Below are positions 1 to 23,637 of a DNA stretch of 64,000 nt, piece after piece. Numbering within the stretch: position 1 is the stretch's first letter; the number at the start of each line of letters is the position of its first letter. The DNA is from Escherichia coli. Its GTDB lineage: Bacteria; Pseudomonadota; Gammaproteobacteria; Enterobacterales; Enterobacteriaceae. The stretch is taken from NCBI RefSeq assembly GCF_036507355.1, contig NZ_AP027877.1; one strand, 5' to 3'. The translations under genes and the position numbers were made by a program. Under the pieces are notes generated by a model. It saw nothing but the letters and a program-made list of their open reading frames with translations, was not told where the DNA came from and made no database searches.

Positions 1-252
1 AAAAGGCGCTCGGCATCGAATTCAGTCGCGTCGCATGTTTTTTGACAAATTCCTGGAACGCAGAGTGGTAGTGACCATAGCGAATAGAAGCACCAATGAC
101 CACACGGTCATAATTTTCCCATTGTGGTTCTTCAATGCGGTGCACATTGGCGACATCCGTCTGGATCCCCAGTTCTTTCAGTTCCGAAGCCAGGTAGGAG
201 GCAATCTCGCGCGTTTGTCCGTCCCTTGTTGAGAAAAGAATTAATGTTTTCA
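1..252 (-). CDS. hemG: Protoporphyrinogen oxidase HemG, N-terminal part only (gene runs off the window start); GTG start
   Basis: Minus-strand translation reads [31 protein letters not shown]..., matching the flavodoxin-like HemG N-terminus; GGAG RBS upstream of the GTG at 250-252. Confidence 0.85.
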
Positions 253-264
253 CGTATTACTCCA

Positions 265-1716
265 TCATTCACGCCAGAAAGTCGGGGTAAAGAGCACCAG
301 CAATGTAAAGACCTCGAGACGACCAAACAGCATGTTGGCAATCAGGATCCATTTAGCCACCGGGTTCATACTGGTAAAGTTATCAGCAACCACGCCAAGC
401 CCTGGCCCCAGGTTATTCAATGTCGCAACAACTGAGGCAAAGGCAGAAAAGTCATCCACGCCCGTGGCGATAATCGCCAGCATACTGACAATAAACACCA
501 ATGCATAGGCGGAGAAAAATCCCCAAACGGCTTCGAGGATACGTTCCGGCAGTGCGCGATTCCCCAGCTTAATGCTATAGACGGCGTTCGGATGCACCAG
601 TCGTTTCAGCTCACGGTTCCCCTGCTTAAACAGCAGCAGGATGCGGATCACTTTCAGGCCACCGCCCGTTGACCCGGCACAACCGCCGATAAAAGCCGAA
701 CATAAAAGCAGTACCGGCAAAAAGAGCGGCCAGCGGGCAATGCTGTCAGTCGTAAACCCGGCGGTTGTCGCCATCGACACCACCTGGAAAAACGCCTGGT
801 TAATTGTCATCAGCGCCGAACTGTAGACATTATGAAACCACAGTACGAGGGTACAAATAACCACCAGCGTAAACTGTACGCCGATAAACATGCGAAATTC
901 CGGATCGCGCCAATAAACCTTCAGACTACGCCCACTTAACAGTGAAAAGTGCAGACCGTAGTTACAGCCGGAGATCAGCAGGAAGATAGCAATGATAGTG
1001 TTAATAGTCGGGCTATCGAAATAACCGATACTGGCATCATGTGTCGAGAAGCCGCCAATAGCGATAGTCGCAAAGCTATGGCCGATGGCATCAAAGGCAT
1101 CCATTCCGGCAAACCACAACGCCAGCGCACAGGCGACGGTCAGCAAGACATAAATCAACCACAGGGTTTTCGCCGTTTCCGCAATTCGCGGGCGCATTTT
1201 GTTATCTTTCAGCGGGCCGGGCATTTCTGCGCGATAGAGCTGCATCCCACCCACGCCGAGGATAGGCAGTATCGCAACCGCTAACACGATGATCCCCATC
1301 CCGCCAAACCATTGCAGCATCTGGCGATAAAAGAGGATGGCGTGAGGGAGCGAATCCAGCCCCACCAGCGTAGTGGCCCCGGTGGTGGTCAGGCCAGAGA
1401 AAGATTCAAAAAACGCATCGGTAATCGTGAGGTTCGGGCTTTCCGAGAAGATAAAAGGGAGCGCACCGACACTACCCAGCACGGTCCAGAACAGCACCAC
1501 TATCAGAAACCCCTCACGGGATTTCAGTTCGCCCTTCTCTTTGCGGTTCGGCCACCACAGCATAGAGCCAATGGCGAGGGCGACAAAAAAGGTCTGGGTA
1601 AAAGCGCGGCCCGCTCCATCCCGGTAGATGAGTGCTACCAGCCCAGGGATAATCATGGTCCCTGAAAATAAGATGACCAGTAGTCCAACGATTCGGGTAA
1701 TGGCGCGAAAATGCAT
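265..1716 (-). CDS. trkH: Trk potassium uptake protein TrkH
   Basis: 483-aa polytopic membrane ORF starting MHFRAITRIVGLLVILFSG; conserved position next to hemG. Confidence 0.93.
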   Translation of the reverse strand: MHFRAITRIVGLLVILFSGTMIIPGLVALIYRDGAGRAFTQTFFVALAIGSMLWWPNRKEKGELKSREGFLIVVLFWTVLGSVGALPFIFSESPNLTITDAFFESFSGLTTTGATTLVGLDSLPHAILFYRQMLQWFGGMGIIVLAVAILPILGVGGMQLYRAEMPGPLKDNKMRPRIAETAKTLWLIYVLLTVACALALWFAGMDAFDAIGHSFATIAIGGFSTHDASIGYFDSPTINTIIAIFLLISGCNYGLHFSLLSGRSLKVYWRDPEFRMFIGVQFTLVVICTLVLWFHNVYSSALMTINQAFFQVVSMATTAGFTTDSIARWPLFLPVLLLCSAFIGGCAGSTGGGLKVIRILLLFKQGNRELKRLVHPNAVYSIKLGNRALPERILEAVWGFFSAYALVFIVSMLAIIATGVDDFSAFASVVATLNNLGPGLGVVADNFTSMNPVAKWILIANMLFGRLEVFTLLVLFTPTFWRE

Positions 1717-1754
1717 CTCTGCCGCTTCCTTAGTTCTGCAAAACGAAGTGGGGA

Positions 1755-2372
1755 TTATTCTTCAATCGCTAACAATTGCAATGAACCACGGCTAAAATCC
1801 GCCAGCTTTGCGGAAAATTCAGCCACTTTCGCCGCCGGAAGCGCCACCCGCAGCAGAACGAATGCCTGATAATCACTGTTGATAATTTTGCCGTCACACT
1901 GCCCCAGCAACGCTTCAATGCCGGTTAACTGACTATATTCACATTGCAAAGTATATTCGGTTAATGGCGTCTTGCGTTGGGTCGTTAGCTGGCGCAGCGC
2001 CTGATTCACGCCGCCGCCATACGCTTTCACTAACCCACCGGTGCCAAGCAATATGCCGCCGTAGTAGCGCACCACCACAGCGGTAATTTCCCCAACGCCG
2101 CTGCCCATTAGCTGGGCGAGCATCGGTTTACCTGCCGTTCCCGCCGGCTCCCCATCGTCAGAGAACCCCAGCTGTTGTGAATCATCCGGCGCACCCGCCA
2201 CCCACGCCACGCAATGGTGGCGGGCATCGGGGTGTTCTGCCCGCACCGATTCAACAAACGCTTTCGCCGCCTCAACGCCATCGGTATGCGCCAACATCGT
2301 TATGAAGCGGCTTTTTTTGATCTCTTCAACGACCGTGACCGGTGCCGCAGGAATTAACCAGCTTTCCATCAC
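1755..2372 (-). CDS. yigZ: IMPACT-family protein YigZ
   Basis: 205-aa ORF; position between trkH and pepQ; 4-bp overlap with the pepQ stop. Confidence 0.85.
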
Positions 2373-3700
2373 GCCAGTTTCAGATCCCGGGTCATGTTTT
2401 CCACGTTGTTTTCGTGGATCACCACGTTGTCTTCGATACGAATGCCGCCGAACGGTTTCAGTGCTTCAATTTTCTGCCAGTTGAAGTGCTTGCTGAACTG
2501 CCCTTCACGCCACGGTGCCAGTAGCGATTCAATGAAGTAGATACCCGGTTCGATGGTTAACACCATGCCCGGCTGGAGAATACGGGTGCAGCGCAGGTAC
2601 GGATATTTTGCCGGTGCCGCGAGGTGCGTACCGCTATCATCCTGCATAAAACCGGCGACGTCATGCACCTGCAGGCCCAGCGGATGGCCGATACCGTGCG
2701 GCATAAACGGTCCGGTGAGATCGTTTTCGACCATCGCTTCTTCACTCATATCGGTGATGATTTGATGTTTACGCAGCAGTTTGGCGATGCGCTGATGGAA
2801 CTGGATGTGGTAATCCACATAGCTAACGCCAGCTTTCATGGTCGCGATCAGCGCCAGTTGTTCATCATTTACGTCTTTCACCAGCTGTGCGTAGTCGTTG
2901 TCGCTTTTTGCCGACCAGGTACGGGTCAGGTCAGCGGCATAGCCGTTATATTCGGCCCCGGCATCCAGCAGGAAGCTGCGCATCTCTTCCGGCGCCTGAT
3001 GATCCAGTTTGGTATAATGCAGCACCGCAGCGTGTTCGTTGAGCGCCACAATGTTGCTGTAAGGTACGTCGGTATCACGATGACCGGTCGCAGTCAGATA
3101 GGCAATATTGATATCGAACTCGCTCATGCCAGAACGGAACGCTTCTTCTGCCGCGCGATGACCGTTGACCGCCATTTTCTGCGCTTCACGCATACAAGCC
3201 AGCTCGTACTCGGTTTTGAAGGAGCGGTAGTAATGCAGGTAGTCGATAACCCCTTTCGGGTTGATATTGCTGGCCTCAATACCCAGTTGCAGCGCACGTT
3301 CCGGCACCGGACCGATATAACCGATATTGCCGCGCGCAGCAGGCAACAGACTACCAATTCCATCGGCTTTCGGCAGCGCGATCACTTCTACATCTTCAGT
3401 CCAGAAGGAGGTCGGCAGCGGTTCGACGTTGTGCCAGTAATCAACCGGCAGATAAAACCACAGTTTCGGCTTGTTCACGCCATCCACCAACAACCAGCAG
3501 TTTGGCACCTGAGTTACCGGCACCCACGCTTTGAATTGCGGGTTCACTTTAAACGGATAGGGATGATCGTCGAGAAAAACATTGAACAGCTCGCCGGAGT
3601 GAATAAGTAACGCATCCAGCTTGAAGCGCGCCAGCGCATCGCGAGTCCGTTCTTGTAAGGTAGCTATATGATTTTTATAGAGCGAGGCCAGTGATTCCAT
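2369..3700 (-). CDS. pepQ: Xaa-Pro dipeptidase PepQ
   Basis: 443-aa ORF with metallopeptidase M24 character ([13 protein letters not shown]); divergent from fadB. Confidence 0.92.
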
Positions 3701-15911: not shown

Positions 15912-17339
15912 CTAGCGCGACTGCTGATTATATTCATCATCGCGTTGATAAGCTTCATCATTCGGCTGCTCCGGAACCGACCGAAGTCGATAATCTTCAT
16001 CCTGGCTCACCGCCTGTTCAGCCAAATCCGGATTAATCTCGCGTTTAATTTCTACTCCTAAACCGCGAAACGCTTCTGCCTGCGCCAGCACATTTCCGCG
16101 CCCTGAAGAGAGTTTTTTCATTGCCTGCCGATAGTTATCCTGCGCTTTGTCGAGACTTTGACCAATCGCGGACATGTCATCGATGAACAAACGCATCTTG
16201 TCGTACAGCTTGCTGGCACGATCGGCGATTTGCTGGGCGTTGCGGCTTTGATGCTCATAACGCCATAGGTTGGCGATAGTGCGCAGCGCCACCAGCAGCG
16301 TAGTCGGGCTAACCAGCATGATATTGTTTTTCAACGCTTCGGTGATCAGCTCCGGCTGGCGGTCAAGCGCCAGTAAAAAAGCGGGTTCAACGGGAATAAA
16401 CATCAGCACGTAATCCAGAGTTCGCAGCCCCGGCAGCTGTTGATAATCTTTGCGTCCCAGCAAACGGATATGGTTACGCACCGACGCGATATGTTCCTGT
16501 AGCGCGCTTTCGCGGGTGTAGTCGTCTTCGGCGTTAAAATAGCGTTCATAGGCGACCAGCGTCATTTTGGCGTCGATCACCACATCTTTTCCCTGCGGCA
16601 GCCGCACGATGACATCCGGCTGCATCCGCGAGCGGGCGTCATTTTCGATGCTGACCTGGGTTTCATATTCATACCCTTCACGCAGACCGGAAGCCTCCAG
16701 CACCCGCGTCAATACTACCTCGCCCCAGTTGCCCTGGGTTTTATTGTCGCCTTTCAGCGCGCGCGTCAGGTTGATCGCTTCCTGGGCCATTTGCGCGTTG
16801 AGTTGCTGGAGATTGCGAATTTCGTGGGTCAGGGTATGGCGTTCTTGTGCTTCTTTACCGAAGCTGTCCTGAACCTGACGGCGGAAACCGTCCAGTTGTT
16901 CACGTAGCGGCGACAACAGGCTGTTCAGACTCTGACGGTTTTGCTCATCAACCCGGCGATTGCTGTGCTCAAAAATACGGTTGGCGAGGTTTTCAAACTG
17001 CTCACTGAGGCGCTGCTCGCTGTTAATCATCTGGCGAATTTTATCGTCAGCATGTTGCTGTGCGGCTTCCATCCGCGTGGTTACTTCACGCAGATCGGCC
17101 TCCAGAGAGGTGTTAATACTTTGCAGGCTGCGCACTTCGTTATTGAGTAACTCGCACTCTGCACGCCAGTGCTCGCTTTGGGTAATTTGTTGTTTTGCCG
17201 CGCTTAACTCCGCGACCATCTCTTCACGTTCAGCTAATTGCTCGGCTTTTTGCTGCGCATGTTGATAACTGGCAAACAGCCAGCCAATTGCCACACCCAC
17301 CAACGCAATAACTGCGTAAACCATGATTGAGAAATCCAC
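15912..17339 (-). CDS. rmuC: DNA recombination protein RmuC
   Basis: 475-aa ORF with N-terminal TM segment and long coiled-coil region. Confidence 0.92.
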   Translation of the reverse strand: MDFSIMVYAVIALVGVAIGWLFASYQHAQQKAEQLAEREEMVAELSAAKQQITQSEHWRAECELLNNEVRSLQSINTSLEADLREVTTRMEAAQQHADDKIRQMINSEQRLSEQFENLANRIFEHSNRRVDEQNRQSLNSLLSPLREQLDGFRRQVQDSFGKEAQERHTLTHEIRNLQQLNAQMAQEAINLTRALKGDNKTQGNWGEVVLTRVLEASGLREGYEYETQVSIENDARSRMQPDVIVRLPQGKDVVIDAKMTLVAYERYFNAEDDYTRESALQEHIASVRNHIRLLGRKDYQQLPGLRTLDYVLMFIPVEPAFLLALDRQPELITEALKNNIMLVSPTTLLVALRTIANLWRYEHQSRNAQQIADRASKLYDKMRLFIDDMSAIGQSLDKAQDNYRQAMKKLSSGRGNVLAQAEAFRGLGVEIKREINPDLAEQAVSQDEDYRLRSVPEQPNDEAYQRDDEYNQQSR

Positions 17340-19707: not shown

Positions 19708-20856
19708 ATGAGTGATATTATTTACTTGACCATAACCGGAGAACAACAAGGATGTATTTCCTCTCGTTGTGGAACGAGCGCATCAATAGGTAATCGCTGG
19801 CAGATTGGCCATGAAGATGAAATCTTCGCGTTCTCGCTCTCTAATAGTATTACGAATACAGGCAAAGGGTCACAATTGCATGGCCTTAGTTTCTGTAAAT
19901 TGATTGACAAAAGCTCCCCGTTACTTATTAACGCTATTAACAATAACGAGCAGTTGTTCATGGAGTTTGACTTCTATCGGATCAATAGATTTGGTCGATG
20001 GGAGAAATATTACAACATTCAACTCCGCGGCGCGCTCTTATCAGCAATCAATCACCTGTTTACTGAGAACAATCTGGATACAGAAGCCATCACTGTCAGT
20101 TATGAATATATACTCTCCAGGCATCTGATTGCTAATACTGAATTTAGTTATTTGGCATTTCCCGATAACTACAACCGTCTGTTTATACCACGGCCAAAAA
20201 CTAAAGCTGGTAATGGTTTCAAAACACTTAACAGTAAAGCGGTTGGCAGACTGCTTGCTGCTGGTGGCATATACAATGGGAATATCGAAGGATTCAGGGA
20301 AACAGCAGACAAGTTGGGGGGAGATGCACCTGCTGGTTACGATCAATTTATGGATAACAAAGGGTTACTCATCGCTGGTGCTTCAATAGTTGCTGGAGCA
20401 GTTCTGGGGAGAATGAGACTCCCTGATTTGGAATCACTTGAGCATTTCGGAGCCAGAGGAGCAGTATCAGGAAGACCATTTAATCCCGACCTTGCCGGTG
20501 GTCCAATAGAAAATCTGACGACAGATGGCATAACAATCAACAGGGAAGGTATCGCTATTGTTGAAAAACACATAGCCAGATTTGGTCATGACCCTGTAAA
20601 TGAAGTGATGATCAATAGACTGAAAGACATTGAGAAAGGAAAAATCCCCCCAGAACAAGTAGATCTTAACTTCTATACTCATGAGTGTCGGGAATATCAG
20701 CGTTACTGTAATCTTGGTTGGGAAACAGGACAACCTGATGGTGACGCAGGCTATGCACTCTGGAATCATACGCATACTGCTACTCTAGAAGATTATAAAC
20801 TTAAGGGAGAACTTAATGACTTATACCACCAGGATGCACTTGACTATGATAACTGA
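19708..20856 (+). CDS. Hcp-fold protein with ~210-aa C-terminal extension (candidate 'evolved Hcp' type VI secretion effector); C-terminal domain unassigned
   Basis: N-terminal ~165 aa carry Hcp signature blocks (KLIDKSSPLL; FDFYRINRFG) aligning to KEIDSSSPYL and FKWYRIN of canonical Hcp; AAGGA RBS; gene visibly AT-rich; not in the K-12 ysgA-metE interval. Confidence 0.72.
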   Translation: MSDIIYLTITGEQQGCISSRCGTSASIGNRWQIGHEDEIFAFSLSNSITNTGKGSQLHGLSFCKLIDKSSPLLINAINNNEQLFMEFDFYRINRFGRWEKYYNIQLRGALLSAINHLFTENNLDTEAITVSYEYILSRHLIANTEFSYLAFPDNYNRLFIPRPKTKAGNGFKTLNSKAVGRLLAAGGIYNGNIEGFRETADKLGGDAPAGYDQFMDNKGLLIAGASIVAGAVLGRMRLPDLESLEHFGARGAVSGRPFNPDLAGGPIENLTTDGITINREGIAIVEKHIARFGHDPVNEVMINRLKDIEKGKIPPEQVDLNFYTHECREYQRYCNLGWETGQPDGDAGYALWNHTHTATLEDYKLKGELNDLYHQDALDYDN

Positions 20857-21091
20857 AACTGAAATTATCGTACTGAAAGTTATGGCTGAGAAAGATATAA
20901 ACTGGAACTGGATGAATCTCGATCGCACACTATCCATAAGGCAAATTCCAGGATTCGGTAATGTTGTTAACATTGTTAACAAATTAGCTAACGAGGGTTT
21001 GGTTATTATTGAGGATAGCGGACATAAGTCTATGCCTCACTACCACGTTACTGAAAAGGGATACAATTTCGTGAAAAGTGAGAATAAATAA
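20816..21091 (+). CDS. Small protein immediately downstream of the Hcp-extension gene; candidate cognate immunity protein (possible internal start at 20846)
   Basis: The ATG at 20846 overlaps the upstream stop in an ATGA arrangement; 81-91 aa; same strand; AT-rich. Confidence 0.5.
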   Translation: MTYTTRMHLTMITETEIIVLKVMAEKDINWNWMNLDRTLSIRQIPGFGNVVNIVNKLANEGLVIIEDSGHKSMPHYHVTEKGYNFVKSENK

Positions 21092-21237
21092 CGTAGCGTT
21101 GATTACTGAACAAATCGCTCAGGATTATATTTTGCGTAAAAATGATTCGGTTATTTCTGTATCTGAACGGGCGCAGATAGCAAAATGGCTTCCGGTGATG
21201 GAAGCCATCAGATTATTGGCAAAGTGCGCGTTGTTCA

Positions 21238-21325
21238 TGCCGGATGCGGCGTGAACGCCTTGTCCAGCCAACAAAACCCAAAAATTCAATAAATTGCATA
21301 AATTATGTAGGCCTGGTATCAGGCA
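21238..21325. repeat. REP unit plus IHF-site-like spacer plus partial REP (RIP-type BIME)
   Basis: TGCCGGATGCGGCGTGAACGCCTTGTCC, then AAAAATTCAATAAATTG, then GTAGGCCTGGTATCAGGC. Confidence 0.75.
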
Positions 21326-21375
21326 GTTTTGCCTCTTTCATCGTACTGCAATTTACAGTGACTCGTTAATATTCA

Positions 21376-23637
21376 TCATCCCCGACGCAAATTCTGCGCC
21401 GCCTGCACCATATTCGCCAGTGCTGCGCGGGTTTCTGGCCAGCCGCGCGTTTTCAGGCCACAGTCCGGGTTGACCCACAGGCGCTCTGCCGGAATGCGTT
21501 TTGCCGCTTTCTTCAGCAAGGCTTCAATCCATTCTACGCTCGGTACGTTTGGCGAGTGAATGTCATAGACGCCTGGACCGATTTCATTCGGATAATCAAA
21601 CTCTTCAAACGACTCCAGCAACTCCATGTCGGAACGCGAGGTTTCGATGGTGATGACGTCTGCGTCCAGTGCCGCAATCGAATCCATGATGTCGTTGAAC
21701 TCGCAATAACACATGTGAGTGTGGATTTGTGTGTCATCTTTCGCCACGGCGGCGTTGATACGGAAGGCCTCCACGCCCCACTGGAGATATGCATCCCAGT
21801 CGCTACGACGCAGCGGTAAACCTTCGCGCAGCGCCGGTTCATCAATCTGGATGATGCCAATTCCTGCGGCTTCCAGGTCCGCCACTTCATCACGCAGCGC
21901 CAGCGCAATTTGTTTGGCGATGGTTTCACGGCTGACATCTTCACGCGGGAACGACCAGCAGAGAATGGTCACCGGGCCAGTCAGCATCCCTTTCACCGGT
22001 TTATCAGTCAGAGATTGCGCATACTTCGCCCACTCAACGGTAATCGGTGCCGGGCGGCTAATATCACCAATGACAATCGGTGGCTTCACGCAGCGGGAAC
22101 CATAGCTCTGTACCCAACCGTTTTGCGTAAAGACAAACCCGTCGAGGTGCTCGCCAAAGTATTCCACCATGTCATTACGCTCGGCCTCGCCATGTACCAG
22201 CACATCCAGTCCCAAACGTTCCTGTTCAACAATGGCCTGCCTGATATGTTCTGCAATGCCCGTGCGGTAGTTATTGGCGTCGAGATTGCCCTTTTTGAAA
22301 TCCAGACGCAGGGTACGAATTTCCGTGGTTTGCGGGAAGGAACCAATCGTGGTGGTCGGCCACGCTGGCAGTTTAAAACGCGCACGCTGGGCTTCAGCAC
22401 GCACTTCATAGACATTCGCACGCTGGCTGTCCTGGGCGGTGATCGCCGCCAGACGCTTTTCTACCGCCGGATTATGTACACGAGTAGAGTGACGACGCGC
22501 CTGAATTGGGGCGCTCCACTCTGCCAGAGCTGCCGTGTCACCACTGTTCAGCGCATCGCGCAGCAGTGCCAGTTCATGGCATTTTTGTAGGGCGAAGGCA
22601 AACCAGCTTTTCACTTCTGCATCAAGACGCGTTTCCACGCTCAGGTCGATGGGGCTGTGCAGCAACGAGCAGGAAGATGCCACCCACAAATCACGTTTGC
22701 CGACAATGTCCTTAATTTGCGCATATTTCTCAGTAAGATCGGCGCGCCAGACGTTACGACCATTGATCAGACCCGCAGACAGCAGCCAGTCAGAAGGCAG
22801 GCGCTTGTGCAGTTCAACAACGTCATCTTTACCATGTACAAGGTCCACATGCAGCCCCTGAACAGGCAGCGCAGTAATCGTGTCGAGATTTGGCGTTACG
22901 CCTTCAAAATAGGTGGTCAGCAGCAGTTTCACCTGTCCCTGGAGCGCGTCGTAAGCGGGTTTGTATGCGTCCAGCCACGCCTGTGGTAGTTCCAGTACCA
23001 GCGCGGGTTCATCAATCTGTACCCACTCGATGCCGCGTTTCGCCAGTTCTGCCAGCACTTGCTGATAAACCGGCAGAATGTCGTTCAGCAGGCTAAGGCG
23101 GTCAAACTGTTCACCTTTCACTTTCCCCAGCCACAGCCAGGTAATCGGCCCCAGCAGCACAGGCTTAACGTTGTGGCCCAGCGCCAGCGCCTCGTCCACT
23201 TCCTCCAGCAGCTGCGTCCAGGTTAGTTTGAACTGTTGGCCTTTAACGAATTCCGGCACCATGTAGTGATAGTTGGTGTTAAACCATTTGGTCATTTCCG
23301 CTGCCGCCGCAGGTTCGCCAGTCGGCGCACGTCCACGACCAATACGGAACAGGGTGTCGATATCTACCGAACCGTCTTTGTTCTGATGACGCGCCGGAAC
23401 GTTACCCAGCAGCAGACTGGTGGTCAGAACATGATCGTACCAGGCAAAATCGCCCACCGGCAGCAGGTCGATACCCGCTTGCTTTTGTTGATCCCAGTGA
23501 CGAGCACGCAATTCACGCCCTACCGCCAGCAGTTCTTCACGCGTGGAGTTCCCCGCCCAATAACTCTCTTGCGCTTTTTTCAGCTCGCGACGCAGGCCAA
23601 CGCGAGGGAAACCGAGGGTGTGATTCAATATTGTCAT
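21376..23637 (-). CDS. metE: Cobalamin-independent methionine synthase MetE
   Basis: 753-aa [32 protein letters not shown]. Confidence 0.96.

Follow-up and report, generated by a model that had tools for sequence, protein, structure and literature searches.

Very probably, the product of the small open reading frame at 20846-21091 is a cytoplasmic immunity protein, cognate to the Hcp-fused toxin whose gene lies directly upstream at 19708-20856. Both genes lie in a stretch of 64,000 nucleotides of Escherichia coli DNA (contig NZ_AP027877.1), the whole of which is referred to here as the window. An initial sequence-only reading had proposed an effector-immunity pair at this position. That proposal is supported by the composition of the upstream gene, an Hcp domain followed by a toxin extension, by the linkage of the small open reading frame to the tip of that toxin and by the existence of orphan copies of the small gene.

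According to this reading, effector and small gene would form one transcription unit, and the small gene would be translated via coupling or re-initiation at the ATG at 20846. [quoted passage not shown] The toxin itself would work in the cytoplasm of the target cell. This location is suggested by the small protein, in which no signal peptide or transmembrane segment is evident on sequence inspection, and by the hydrophobic segment that precedes the toxin tip. It is also suggested by the PAAR-fused versions of the tip, which have transmembrane regions and lie behind a DcrB/Eag chaperone gene. The assignment would correct an annotation error that recurs, the name "MarR family transcriptional regulator", and gives a tractable pair for seeking new toxic activity.

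The effector gene, the small gene and the hairpin

The features of the locus are the following.

19708..20856, plus strand: hcp-ET effector gene, 382 aa, tssD according to PGAP (WP_001612076.1)
Effector residues 1-147, plus strand: Hcp/TssD domain (TIGR03344, Pfam T6SS_HCP)
Effector linker, plus strand: common to other Hcp-ETs, with a hydrophobic Gly/Ala-rich segment at about residues 216-232
20446..20853, plus strand: predicted toxin tip domain, 136 aa, residues 247-382, FGARG...NFYTHECREYQRY..LGW..LWNHTHTATLEDY
20816..20845, plus strand: optional N-terminal extension of the small protein with in-frame ATGs at 20816 and 20834, absent from homologues
20846..21091, plus strand: putative immunity gene, 81 aa (WP_000627421.1), with an 11-nt overlap with the effector 3′ end
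21185..21208, no strand assigned: palindromic hairpin ATGGCTTCC-N6-GGAAGCCAT, 94 nt beyond the stop of the immunity gene

The N-terminus of the effector matches TIGR03344 (E 1.6e-36; score 125.8 bits, cut-off 58.9) and Pfam T6SS_HCP, and the matches to Hcp structures in the PDB span residues 3-145 only. The C-terminal extension is predicted to be a transferable toxin domain. Its invariant residues (H288, R291, D319, H325, E326, E329, R332, W352, H356 and D362) are all present in the window effector. Searches with the tip returned no match in Pfam, NCBIfam, PHROGs, PADLOC or the PDB (single sequence and profile). The names "colicin", "HNH endonuclease" and "klebicin D activity protein" found in the source records were set aside, as the tip sequence gives no detectable basis for them. 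In one such protein (P0327) the Pyocin_S match is limited to residues 3-47, preceding the tip. One sequence match, P0206 (522 aa, seven matched stretches), turned out to be an ankyrin-repeat protein and was discarded as a false positive.

The small open reading frame is a real gene. Its dN/dS of 0.08-0.39 against homologues, orphans included, and the AlphaFold2 pLDDT of 91.4 place it beyond chance, and its family is under purifying selection. As originally described, the gene is AT-rich (GC 0.38-0.39 over 20750-21199 against 0.52-0.58 in the flanking core genes) and its product is non-hydrophobic (GRAVY -0.27, pI 6.3). The ATGs at 20816, 20834 and 20846 indeed share one frame to the TAA at 21089-21091, giving products of 91, 85 and 81 aa. 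The overlap with the effector gene had been described as an ATGA joining the start at 20846 to the upstream stop codon. The ATGA is present at 20846-20849, but the upstream gene does not read this TGA in frame: it ends in ...GAC TAT GAT AAC TGA with the stop at 20854-20856; the overlap is therefore 11 nt and not 4. Genuine 4-nt ATGA overlaps are found in three homologous loci (L007, L016 and L017), and effector and immunity genes overlap by 4, 4, 4, 7, 11, 11, 11 and 17 nt in eight loci.

Position 20846 is the sole conserved start, with all homologues opening MITETE-like, and is also the start called by PGAP. The 10 codons upstream of it show no conservation among homologues, and the upstream ATG sits in another frame in other loci. 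Translation of the immunity protein probably does not include the extension at 20816-20845. A GGAG at 20806-20809 precedes the ATG at 20816 by 6 nt, so that, judged from the sequence, E. coli may also use this start.

The hairpin, previously placed at about 21186-21207, is real and shifted by 1 nt, with arms at 21185-21193 and 21200-21208. Within a 56-nt context it folds at -19.7 kcal/mol on the plus strand and -18.7 kcal/mol on the minus strand (z -3.4 and -4.2), and it is kept with an altered loop in the B2-type allele of locus L016. We rejected it as the terminator of the pair given that a consensus terminator scan made no call at 21185-21208 and that a U-tract (UUUUGC) follows the hairpin on the minus strand only, opposite to the pair. 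More plausibly, it would terminate transcription of the convergent metE gene or act as a terminator in both directions.

Linkage to the toxin tip and orphan copies

The toxin domain was found in at least 191 species-representative genomes, whose range extends from Enterobacterales as far as cyanobacteria and Planctomycetes. Tips joined to Hcp (E. coli, Citrobacter and Salmonella), to DUF8093 (Cronobacter) or to an unannotated N-terminus (Pantoea, and a Mangrovibacter contig on which the gene lies beside traI) have a homologue of the small open reading frame directly after them. Besides the PAAR fusions, further versions carry the tip at the end of a Pyocin_S domain, and stand-alone tip genes also exist.

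Linkage was assessed with an HMM of the small-ORF family at 79 tip loci, comprising 2,480 ORFs, from species-representative genomes of diverse bacteria. The HMM matched 50-51 of the 2,480 ORFs, all of them directly 3′ of the tip, with zero matches elsewhere in the 79 loci; 41 of 48 small ORFs start at most 25 nt from the toxin stop. Counting against the immunity reading, a different small-protein family occupies the same position in 25 of the 79 loci, and the winged-helix family is thus not the sole partner of this toxin. Across eight pairs the identities of tip and small ORF co-vary (Mantel r 0.85, p 0.001), a correlation that could come from joint inheritance instead of co-adaptation, and the small ORF diverges faster than the tip.

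Orphan copies of the small ORF occupy arrays with Imm35 and Colicin_immun genes. The orphan copy comes after Imm35 in Citrobacter arrays, and C. koseri has an orphan copy with the window tip absent. The E. coli island that harbours the pair is present in about 16 % of complete genomes (848/5,426); strains PCN033 and 88-3493 also carry it. About 730 E. coli genomes carry the orphan as a second gene beside a different tip allele: the tip has only about 80 % nucleotide identity to the window tip and its own cognate immunity gene (85-aa product) 60 % protein identity, while the orphan (81-aa product) has 94 % nucleotide identity to the window gene. The widely used strains UTI89, 536 and ATCC 25922 carry the island and are among those that combine the B2 allele with a window-type orphan immunity gene. 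This orphan-immunity pattern predicts E. coli lineages that resist given Hcp-ET alleles, which is relevant to the competition of gut and extra-intestinal strains.

The winged-helix fold and alternative roles

In the AlphaFold model the small protein folds as a minimal winged helix that most resembles MarR/PadR/RosR and consists of the wHTH core and one C-terminal helix only; this resemblance accounts for the NCBI name "MarR family regulator". Several observations on the fold count against an immunity function. The structural neighbours are all DNA-binding regulators (MarR, RosR, MepR and PadR), NCBI labels some homologues as MarR family transcriptional regulators, and distant relatives weakly match Pfam PadR (7/67 at E<=1e-3). 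For the window protein, Pfam gives nothing significant (best HTH_45 and EarA, E 0.12-0.16), and its match to the NCBIfam model Lrs14 scores 12.3 bits, below the cut-off of 90. Homology showing an unrelated function had been named beforehand as grounds for abandoning the immunity proposal; the MarR/PadR-like fold and the regulator names do point that way, but only nominally.

These observations would fit a protein that is solely a MarR/PadR-type transcription factor, acting on the hcp-ET operon or on other genes without neutralising the toxin, a role that we consider quite improbable. MarR proteins are about 140-150 aa long, with dimerisation helices flanking the wHTH, whereas the window protein is half that length and lacks both the N- and the C-terminal dimerisation helices. 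Unlike the MarR/PadR/RosR regulators it is not basic but near neutral (pI 6.3, net charge -1), with one basic residue in the "recognition helix" (helix 3, VVNIVNKLAN), and the motif of its family, W-x-W-(Y/M)-x-LDR, is not a regulator signature. Upstream of hcp-ET no convincing operator-like palindrome was found, just weak AT-rich repeats. In contrast to regulators, the family is toxin-linked in every genomic context examined, and its position is fixed 3′ of the toxin domain under at least five unrelated delivery modules with differing promoters. Toxin-less orphan copies persist in immunity arrays under purifying selection. A regulator would moreover leave the toxin with no immunity gene at all, no other plausible one having been found in the island. 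The genomic context weighs more than the MarR/PadR resemblance, which is one of fold.

Tight coupling to the effector gene is also what an accessory chaperone or adaptor that stabilises or loads the Hcp-toxin would show, and some T6SS effectors need small dedicated chaperones of this kind. Such a role is hardly credible here: the family also follows stand-alone tips and tips delivered by other routes, and so goes with the toxin domain irrespective of how it is delivered. The PAAR versions have their own Eag/DcrB chaperone upstream, and toxin-less orphan copies would be senseless for a chaperone. It is likewise highly improbable that the pair is a decaying remnant, with a toxin that is inactive or undelivered and a small ORF kept by linkage only. 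Decay does occur, hcp-ET being interrupted by an IS3 element in O145:H28 strains and by an internal stop in APEC IMT5155, and no T6SS genes were found within 20 kb of the island. However, the window toxin ORF is intact at 382 aa with every invariant tip residue, differs by 11 residues from the PCN033 protein and by 0.1 % of nucleotides from the nearest RefSeq locus, and the dN/dS of the small ORF is well under 1. Orphan hcp-ET islands distant from the T6SS cluster are, in addition, usual for this class (PMC6730261; bioRxiv 10.1101/2024.03.05.583533). Deletion of PCN033 Hcp3, most likely the counterpart of the window effector, caused no clear loss of K-12 W3110 killing (PMC4882540), a competition result in line with a remnant that we also counted against the immunity reading.

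A more far-reaching reading, which we hold to be speculative and rather unlikely, takes the tip and the winged helix as an ancient toxin-antitoxin (TA) module that later became a cassette in Hcp, PAAR, Rhs-type and pyocin delivery, with the 81-aa protein as a dual antitoxin. The module would still stand alone in cyanobacteria, sometimes fused to HicB. The toxin would have a helical enzymatic fold not seen before, built on an invariant His/Glu/Arg/Asp set; the 81-aa protein would neutralise it and would also bind operator DNA by its MarR/PadR-like winged helix, resulting in TA-style autoregulation of a T6SS effector operon.

Comparison with known systems

We compared the pair, read as an Hcp-fused toxin with its cognate immunity protein, to systems of related layout. 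As in type II TA systems with HTH/wHTH antitoxins, the tip can occur on its own: cyanobacteria, Planctomycetes and Thiotrichaceae have it as a separate gene of about 135-165 aa, with a window-family gene next to it downstream, in some cases fused to a HicB-like domain. These stand-alone pairs are confined to other phyla, and the window tip differs in being part of a putatively secreted Hcp fusion and not a free intracellular toxin. Colicins and S-type pyocins offer another parallel, since in Serratia, Pseudomonas and Pantoea the tip takes the position of the killing domain after Pyocin_S and is followed by a small gene, sometimes in tandem copies. The tip is, however, without similarity to the known DNase, rRNase and tRNase domains of colicins and pyocins, and the downstream gene of the pyocin-like loci comes from another family (A6) of marginal similarity to the window family (hhalign probability 40 %, E 3e-4).

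Winged-helix immunity has a precedent in polymorphic toxin systems, Imm-NMB0513/DUF596, with two conserved tryptophans (Zhang et al. 2012, PMC3482391), and the window family likewise has conserved W20 and W22. The toxins partnered with Imm-NMB0513, Ntox20 and Ntox7 (PMC3482391), are domains different from the window tip. Membership in DUF596/Imm-NMB0513 was rejected, as 0/67 family members match Pfam DUF596; 2O5H is not among the structural neighbours listed for the small protein.

Two systems with an Hcp fusion come closest. In T6EC4/T6IC4 of C. koseri, an orphan operon encodes an Hcp with an unannotated toxin and, downstream of it, a small immunity protein, and co-expression rescues the cells (Geller et al. 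2024, PMC11148199); the window has a similar arrangement, an Hcp whose C-terminal toxin is unannotated and a small gene after it. In C. koseri genomes other than FDAARGOS_164 itself, the Hcp-ET (363 aa), which we take to be T6EC4 by inference only, as PMC11148199 gives no sequence or gene ID, has a different tip. It is followed by a 78-aa ORF unrelated to the window protein, and the window-family genes in these loci are orphans (82.5 % and 57.5 % identity). On the evidence available, identity with T6EC4/T6IC4 was therefore rejected.

Hcp-ET1/ETI1, equated with YhhZ/YrhA (Ma et al. 2017, as reported in PMC6730261, PMC6099711 and bioRxiv 10.1101/2024.03.05.583533), has the same layout as the window pair: the hcp gene is an orphan, encodes a C-terminal toxin and overlaps an immunity gene. 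Residues 1-228 of the window effector (Hcp and linker) share 74 % identity with YhhZ from strain 55989; beyond residue 228 the two diverge, and the Hcp-ET1 tip, which has an HNH motif, bears no relation to that of the window. YrhA has 164 aa and is unrelated to the small protein, with no significant similarity between the two (E 0.02 over 68 aa). The loci differ as well, with Hcp-ET1 at yhhY-ggt and the window pair at ysgA-metE, and strain 55989 carries Hcp-ET1 yet has no metE-ysgA island; identity with Hcp-ET1/ETI1 was discarded.

Searches of the literature by WP accession and by Hcp-ET together with metE returned no match for the pair; Pfam and NCBIfam have no family for either partner, and no solved structure of either exists. 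The layout is ordinary, but the pair is distinct from the published Hcp-ET1/ETI1 and T6EC4/T6IC4 and brings together a tip domain and a winged-helix immunity family not previously described.

The small gene and its position behind the toxin domain

The small ORF is very probably the immunity gene of the effector gene that precedes it, an assignment first made in the sequence-only reading that holds on the reality of the gene, its fold, its strict co-localisation with the toxin tip, the pattern of orphan copies and the modularity of the pair, with corrections to the start-stop geometry and to the reading of a downstream hairpin. The features concerned are:

19708-20856 (+), hcp-ET, 382 aa: Hcp/TssD, linker and tip (residues 247-382, a 136-aa putative toxin domain)
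20179-20445 (+), linker of hcp-ET (residues 158-246), common to YhhZ and other Hcp-ETs: NSKAVGRLLAAGGIYNGN...GGDAPAGY, then a Gly/Ala-rich hydrophobic stretch
20846-21091 (+), small ORF, 81 aa, WP_000627421.1, putative immunity gene

The small ORF encodes a real protein. Its homologues share 37-85% identity, and dN/dS against the window gene is 0.08-0.39 in comparisons with unsaturated synonymous sites. The AlphaFold2 model of the product (pLDDT 91.4) is a compact winged helix comprising helix 4-15, a short strand, helices 22-31 and 40-49, a beta-hairpin wing at 53-68 and helix 70-80. Searched with a profile, 1.84 billion representative proteins yielded 103 relatives, nearly all of them stand-alone proteins of 75-100 aa with the common motif W-x-W-(Y/M)-x-LDR. 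One 159-aa metagenomic protein, P0219, carries the last ~75 tip residues and the full small-ORF family domain in a single called protein; the two could be truly fused, or the call could stem from read-through or a frameshift.

Re-reading the sequence confirmed the in-frame ATGs at 20816, 20834 and 20846 and the TAA stop at 21089-91. The ATGA stop-start overlap originally described, however, is a frame error: hcp-ET ends ...GAC TAT GAT AAC TGA with its stop at 20854-56, and the overlap with ATG 20846 is therefore 11 nt. Gene overlaps in homologous loci measure 4, 4, 4, 7, 11, 11, 11 and 17 nt; tight coupling is thus conserved, its exact form is not. PGAP likewise places the start at 20846, the MITETE position is the start in all homologues, the ten codons upstream lack conservation, and where the overlap phase differs the upstream ATG falls in another frame. 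Since GGAG at 20806-09 is well placed relative to ATG 20816, a 91-aa form may nevertheless be made in E. coli.

From 79 tip-containing loci totalling 577 kb we extracted all ORFs of at least 55 aa (n = 2,480). The family HMM matches 50-51 of these ORFs, each directly 3′ of a tip-coding sequence and none elsewhere in the 79 loci; three matches overlooked in a first pass lie downstream of frameshifted toxin genes. The small ORF starts within 25 nt of the toxin stop in 41 of 48 cases. Across 8 pairs, tip and small-ORF identities co-vary (Mantel r 0.85, p 0.001), which is consistent with an immunity function, although joint inheritance could give the same correlation; the small ORF diverges faster (26-78% identity vs 58-83% for the tip).

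In 25 of the 79 loci the place of the small ORF is taken by a different family of 85-96 aa (LDR...KGPNWKEP-F), often with additional tandem copies; these loci mostly encode pyocin-like proteins of Pseudomonas, Serratia and Pantoea. At five pyocin-like loci (L069, L075, L082, L093 and L095) it is present two or three times, in tandem or close by, an arrangement like that of bacteriocin immunity arrays. This second family has no Pfam match. Profile-profile comparison aligns it with the window family in the same register at marginal significance (probability 40%, E 3e-4), and one member weakly matches the window-family HMM; the two families may share one fold, the second as a highly diverged branch. 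Four of the 79 loci have no candidate partner ORF.

The effector and its mobile tip

Residues 1-147 of hcp-ET are Hcp/TssD (TIGR03344, E 1.6e-36; Pfam T6SS_HCP; PDB Hcp chains), and over residues 1-228 the protein shares 74% identity with the YhhZ of strain 55989, with complete divergence beyond. Of the whole query, some 3,000 other E. coli genomes, among them K-12, contain the linker alone, which suggests that it acts as a recombination junction before the variable toxin; its Gly/Ala-rich hydrophobic stretch, GLLIAGASIVAGAVLG, might help entry into the target cytoplasm. Searches of Pfam, NCBIfam, PHROGs, PADLOC and PDB sequences gave no match to the tip. Invariant across its diverse homologues are H288, R291, D319, H325, E326, E329, R332, W352, H356 and D362, a pattern that would suit an enzyme. 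The toxin would be delivered via the T6SS and act in the cytoplasm, and the small protein would bind and neutralise the tip.

Judged by its fusion partners, the tip appears to be a mobile toxin cassette on varied delivery modules. It is fused to Hcp in Citrobacter and Salmonella (yhhY-ggt hotspot), to DUF8093 in Cronobacter and, in Pantoea as well as on a Mangrovibacter contig beside traI, to some 140 aa of unannotated N-terminal sequence. It is also carried by a PAAR protein that has transmembrane regions and is encoded downstream of a DcrB/Eag chaperone. In Serratia it starts directly where a Pyocin_S domain ends, as a bacteriocin killing domain would. A distant small-ORF relative lies 3 nt past a 5,157-aa RHS protein, a candidate further carrier of the tip. 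Scanning one genome per species gave 191 tip relatives, ranging over Enterobacterales, Pseudomonas, Burkholderiales, Dyella, many cyanobacteria, Planctomycetes, Kordia and an acidobacterial MAG. On the Mangrovibacter Logan contig (L002), the non-Hcp toxin version and its immunity gene have genes for a TraI relaxase/helicase and a DsbA-like protein next to them; a Colicin_immun (PF09204) gene and an EcoRII restriction-modification pair come after. This neighbourhood suggests carriage on a conjugative element.

Island, orphan copies and hairpin

On the E. coli chromosome, hcp-ET and the small ORF lie in a 2-kb AT-rich island (GC 0.31-0.46 vs 0.52-0.58 in the flanks) inserted between ysgA (+) and the convergent metE (-, 21376-23637), with ubiB-ubiJ-ubiE-rmuC-udp-ysgA on one flank and metE-metR-bioP on the other. 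Two further features bear on this region:

L014 (E. coli 55989) 16373-16410, GC-rich hairpin GACCGGGTGGTATTACCACCCGGT in the ysgA-metE spacer of island-free strains
21132-21254, PGAP 40-aa 'hypothetical protein' WP_001230617.1, downstream of the immunity gene; 58 aa (21078-21254) from GTG 21078

In island-free strains such as 55989 the spacer is just 38 nt and carries this different hairpin; the island has therefore taken the place of the ancestral shared terminator region.

The small-ORF gene occurs in 848 of 5,426 complete E. coli genomes and the tip in 846, with the window allele of both genes in about 118 (at least 95% identity). In about 730 genomes, with UTI89, 536, ATCC 25922 and APEC strains among the matches listed, the tip is just ~80% identical (nucleotide) and has its own cognate of 85 aa, 60% identical; next comes a second gene, with 94% (nucleotide) and 86% (protein) identity to the window gene. 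Such a two-gene pattern is what a toxin-immunity cassette typically leaves behind when a new one displaces it and the old immunity gene is retained. Further copies stand apart from their tip and behave as immunity genes would: Citrobacter arrays place a family member after Imm35 and upstream of an Hcp-ET with its own cognate, and C. koseri has two family members with the tip absent. At the Mangrovibacter locus the Colicin_immun gene lies downstream of the pair. In O145:H28 and related strains an IS3-family transposase splits hcp-ET, and in APEC IMT5155 (L015) hcp-ET has an internal stop; the immunity gene(s) are still annotated as intact in both.

The hairpin that the sequence-only reading placed after the pair exists (arms 21185-93 and 21200-08; ~ -19 kcal/mol, z -3.4 and -4.2) and is kept in another allele with an altered loop, but its U-tract is on the minus strand, so that it better fits a metE or bidirectional terminator than one belonging to the pair. 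A consensus terminator scan did not call it (21185-21208). The WP_001230617.1 ORF includes the hairpin, its 3′ end reaches a REP-like sequence (by eye) and conservation of its DNA in the B2-type allele is partial; the ORF could be what remains of a gene, or an artefact of annotation. After the hairpin and before the metE stop (~21210-21330), the window has ~120 nt that are absent from the B2-type allele (L016 3860-3880); they include GCCGGATGCGGCGTGAACGCCTTGTCCAGCC, which we take to resemble a REP element.

Regulatory ancestry and known systems

Going by its winged-helix fold, the small protein could instead be purely a regulator of the MarR/PadR type. Searches with the family profile reach PadR-like PDB chains (E 1e-5 to 1e-4), Pfam PadR matches 7 of 67 distant members, and NCBI names some homologues "MarR family transcriptional regulator"; by these resemblances the family is clearly an offshoot of the wHTH regulator superfamily. 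The small protein itself, however, lacks dimerisation helices, is near neutral in charge and has one basic residue in helix 3, and no clear operator was found upstream of hcp-ET. The family goes with the toxin domain and not with any promoter or delivery module, it occurs in orphan arrays, and if the small ORF were not the immunity gene the toxin would have none. These points argue against a purely regulatory role, and the small protein may combine neutralisation with regulation. In cyanobacteria (L054-L062, L066 and L077) and other phyla, and at loci L043 and L047, a stand-alone tip of ~135-165 aa is followed by a family member, fused in Microcoleus to a HicB-like C-terminal domain, an arrangement that looks like a type II toxin-antitoxin module.

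As an effector-immunity layout the immunity-gene interpretation is standard and of low surprise; the novelty lies in the toxin domain and in the MarR/PadR-derived immunity family, both of them unannotated and widespread. Identity with Hcp-ET1/ETI1 was rejected, the latter being YhhZ/YrhA, whose tip has an HNH motif and whose immunity protein is 164 aa long, as was identity with the Hcp-ET of the examined C. koseri genomes, which we infer to be T6EC4/T6IC4 (PMC11148199). Imm-NMB0513/DUF596 is a published winged-helix immunity family with two conserved Trp (PMC3482391), but the window family does not match it. In porcine ExPEC PCN033, Hcp3 is described as encoded far from the T6SS cluster and its second half as lacking homology; the hcp3 mutant is reported to have invasion and colonisation phenotypes, with no clear role of the gene in killing K-12 (PMC4882540). 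The island is also present in PCN033, where the toxin differs at 11 positions and the small protein at 2; by gene numbering the hcp-ET effector is probably Hcp3 of this strain.
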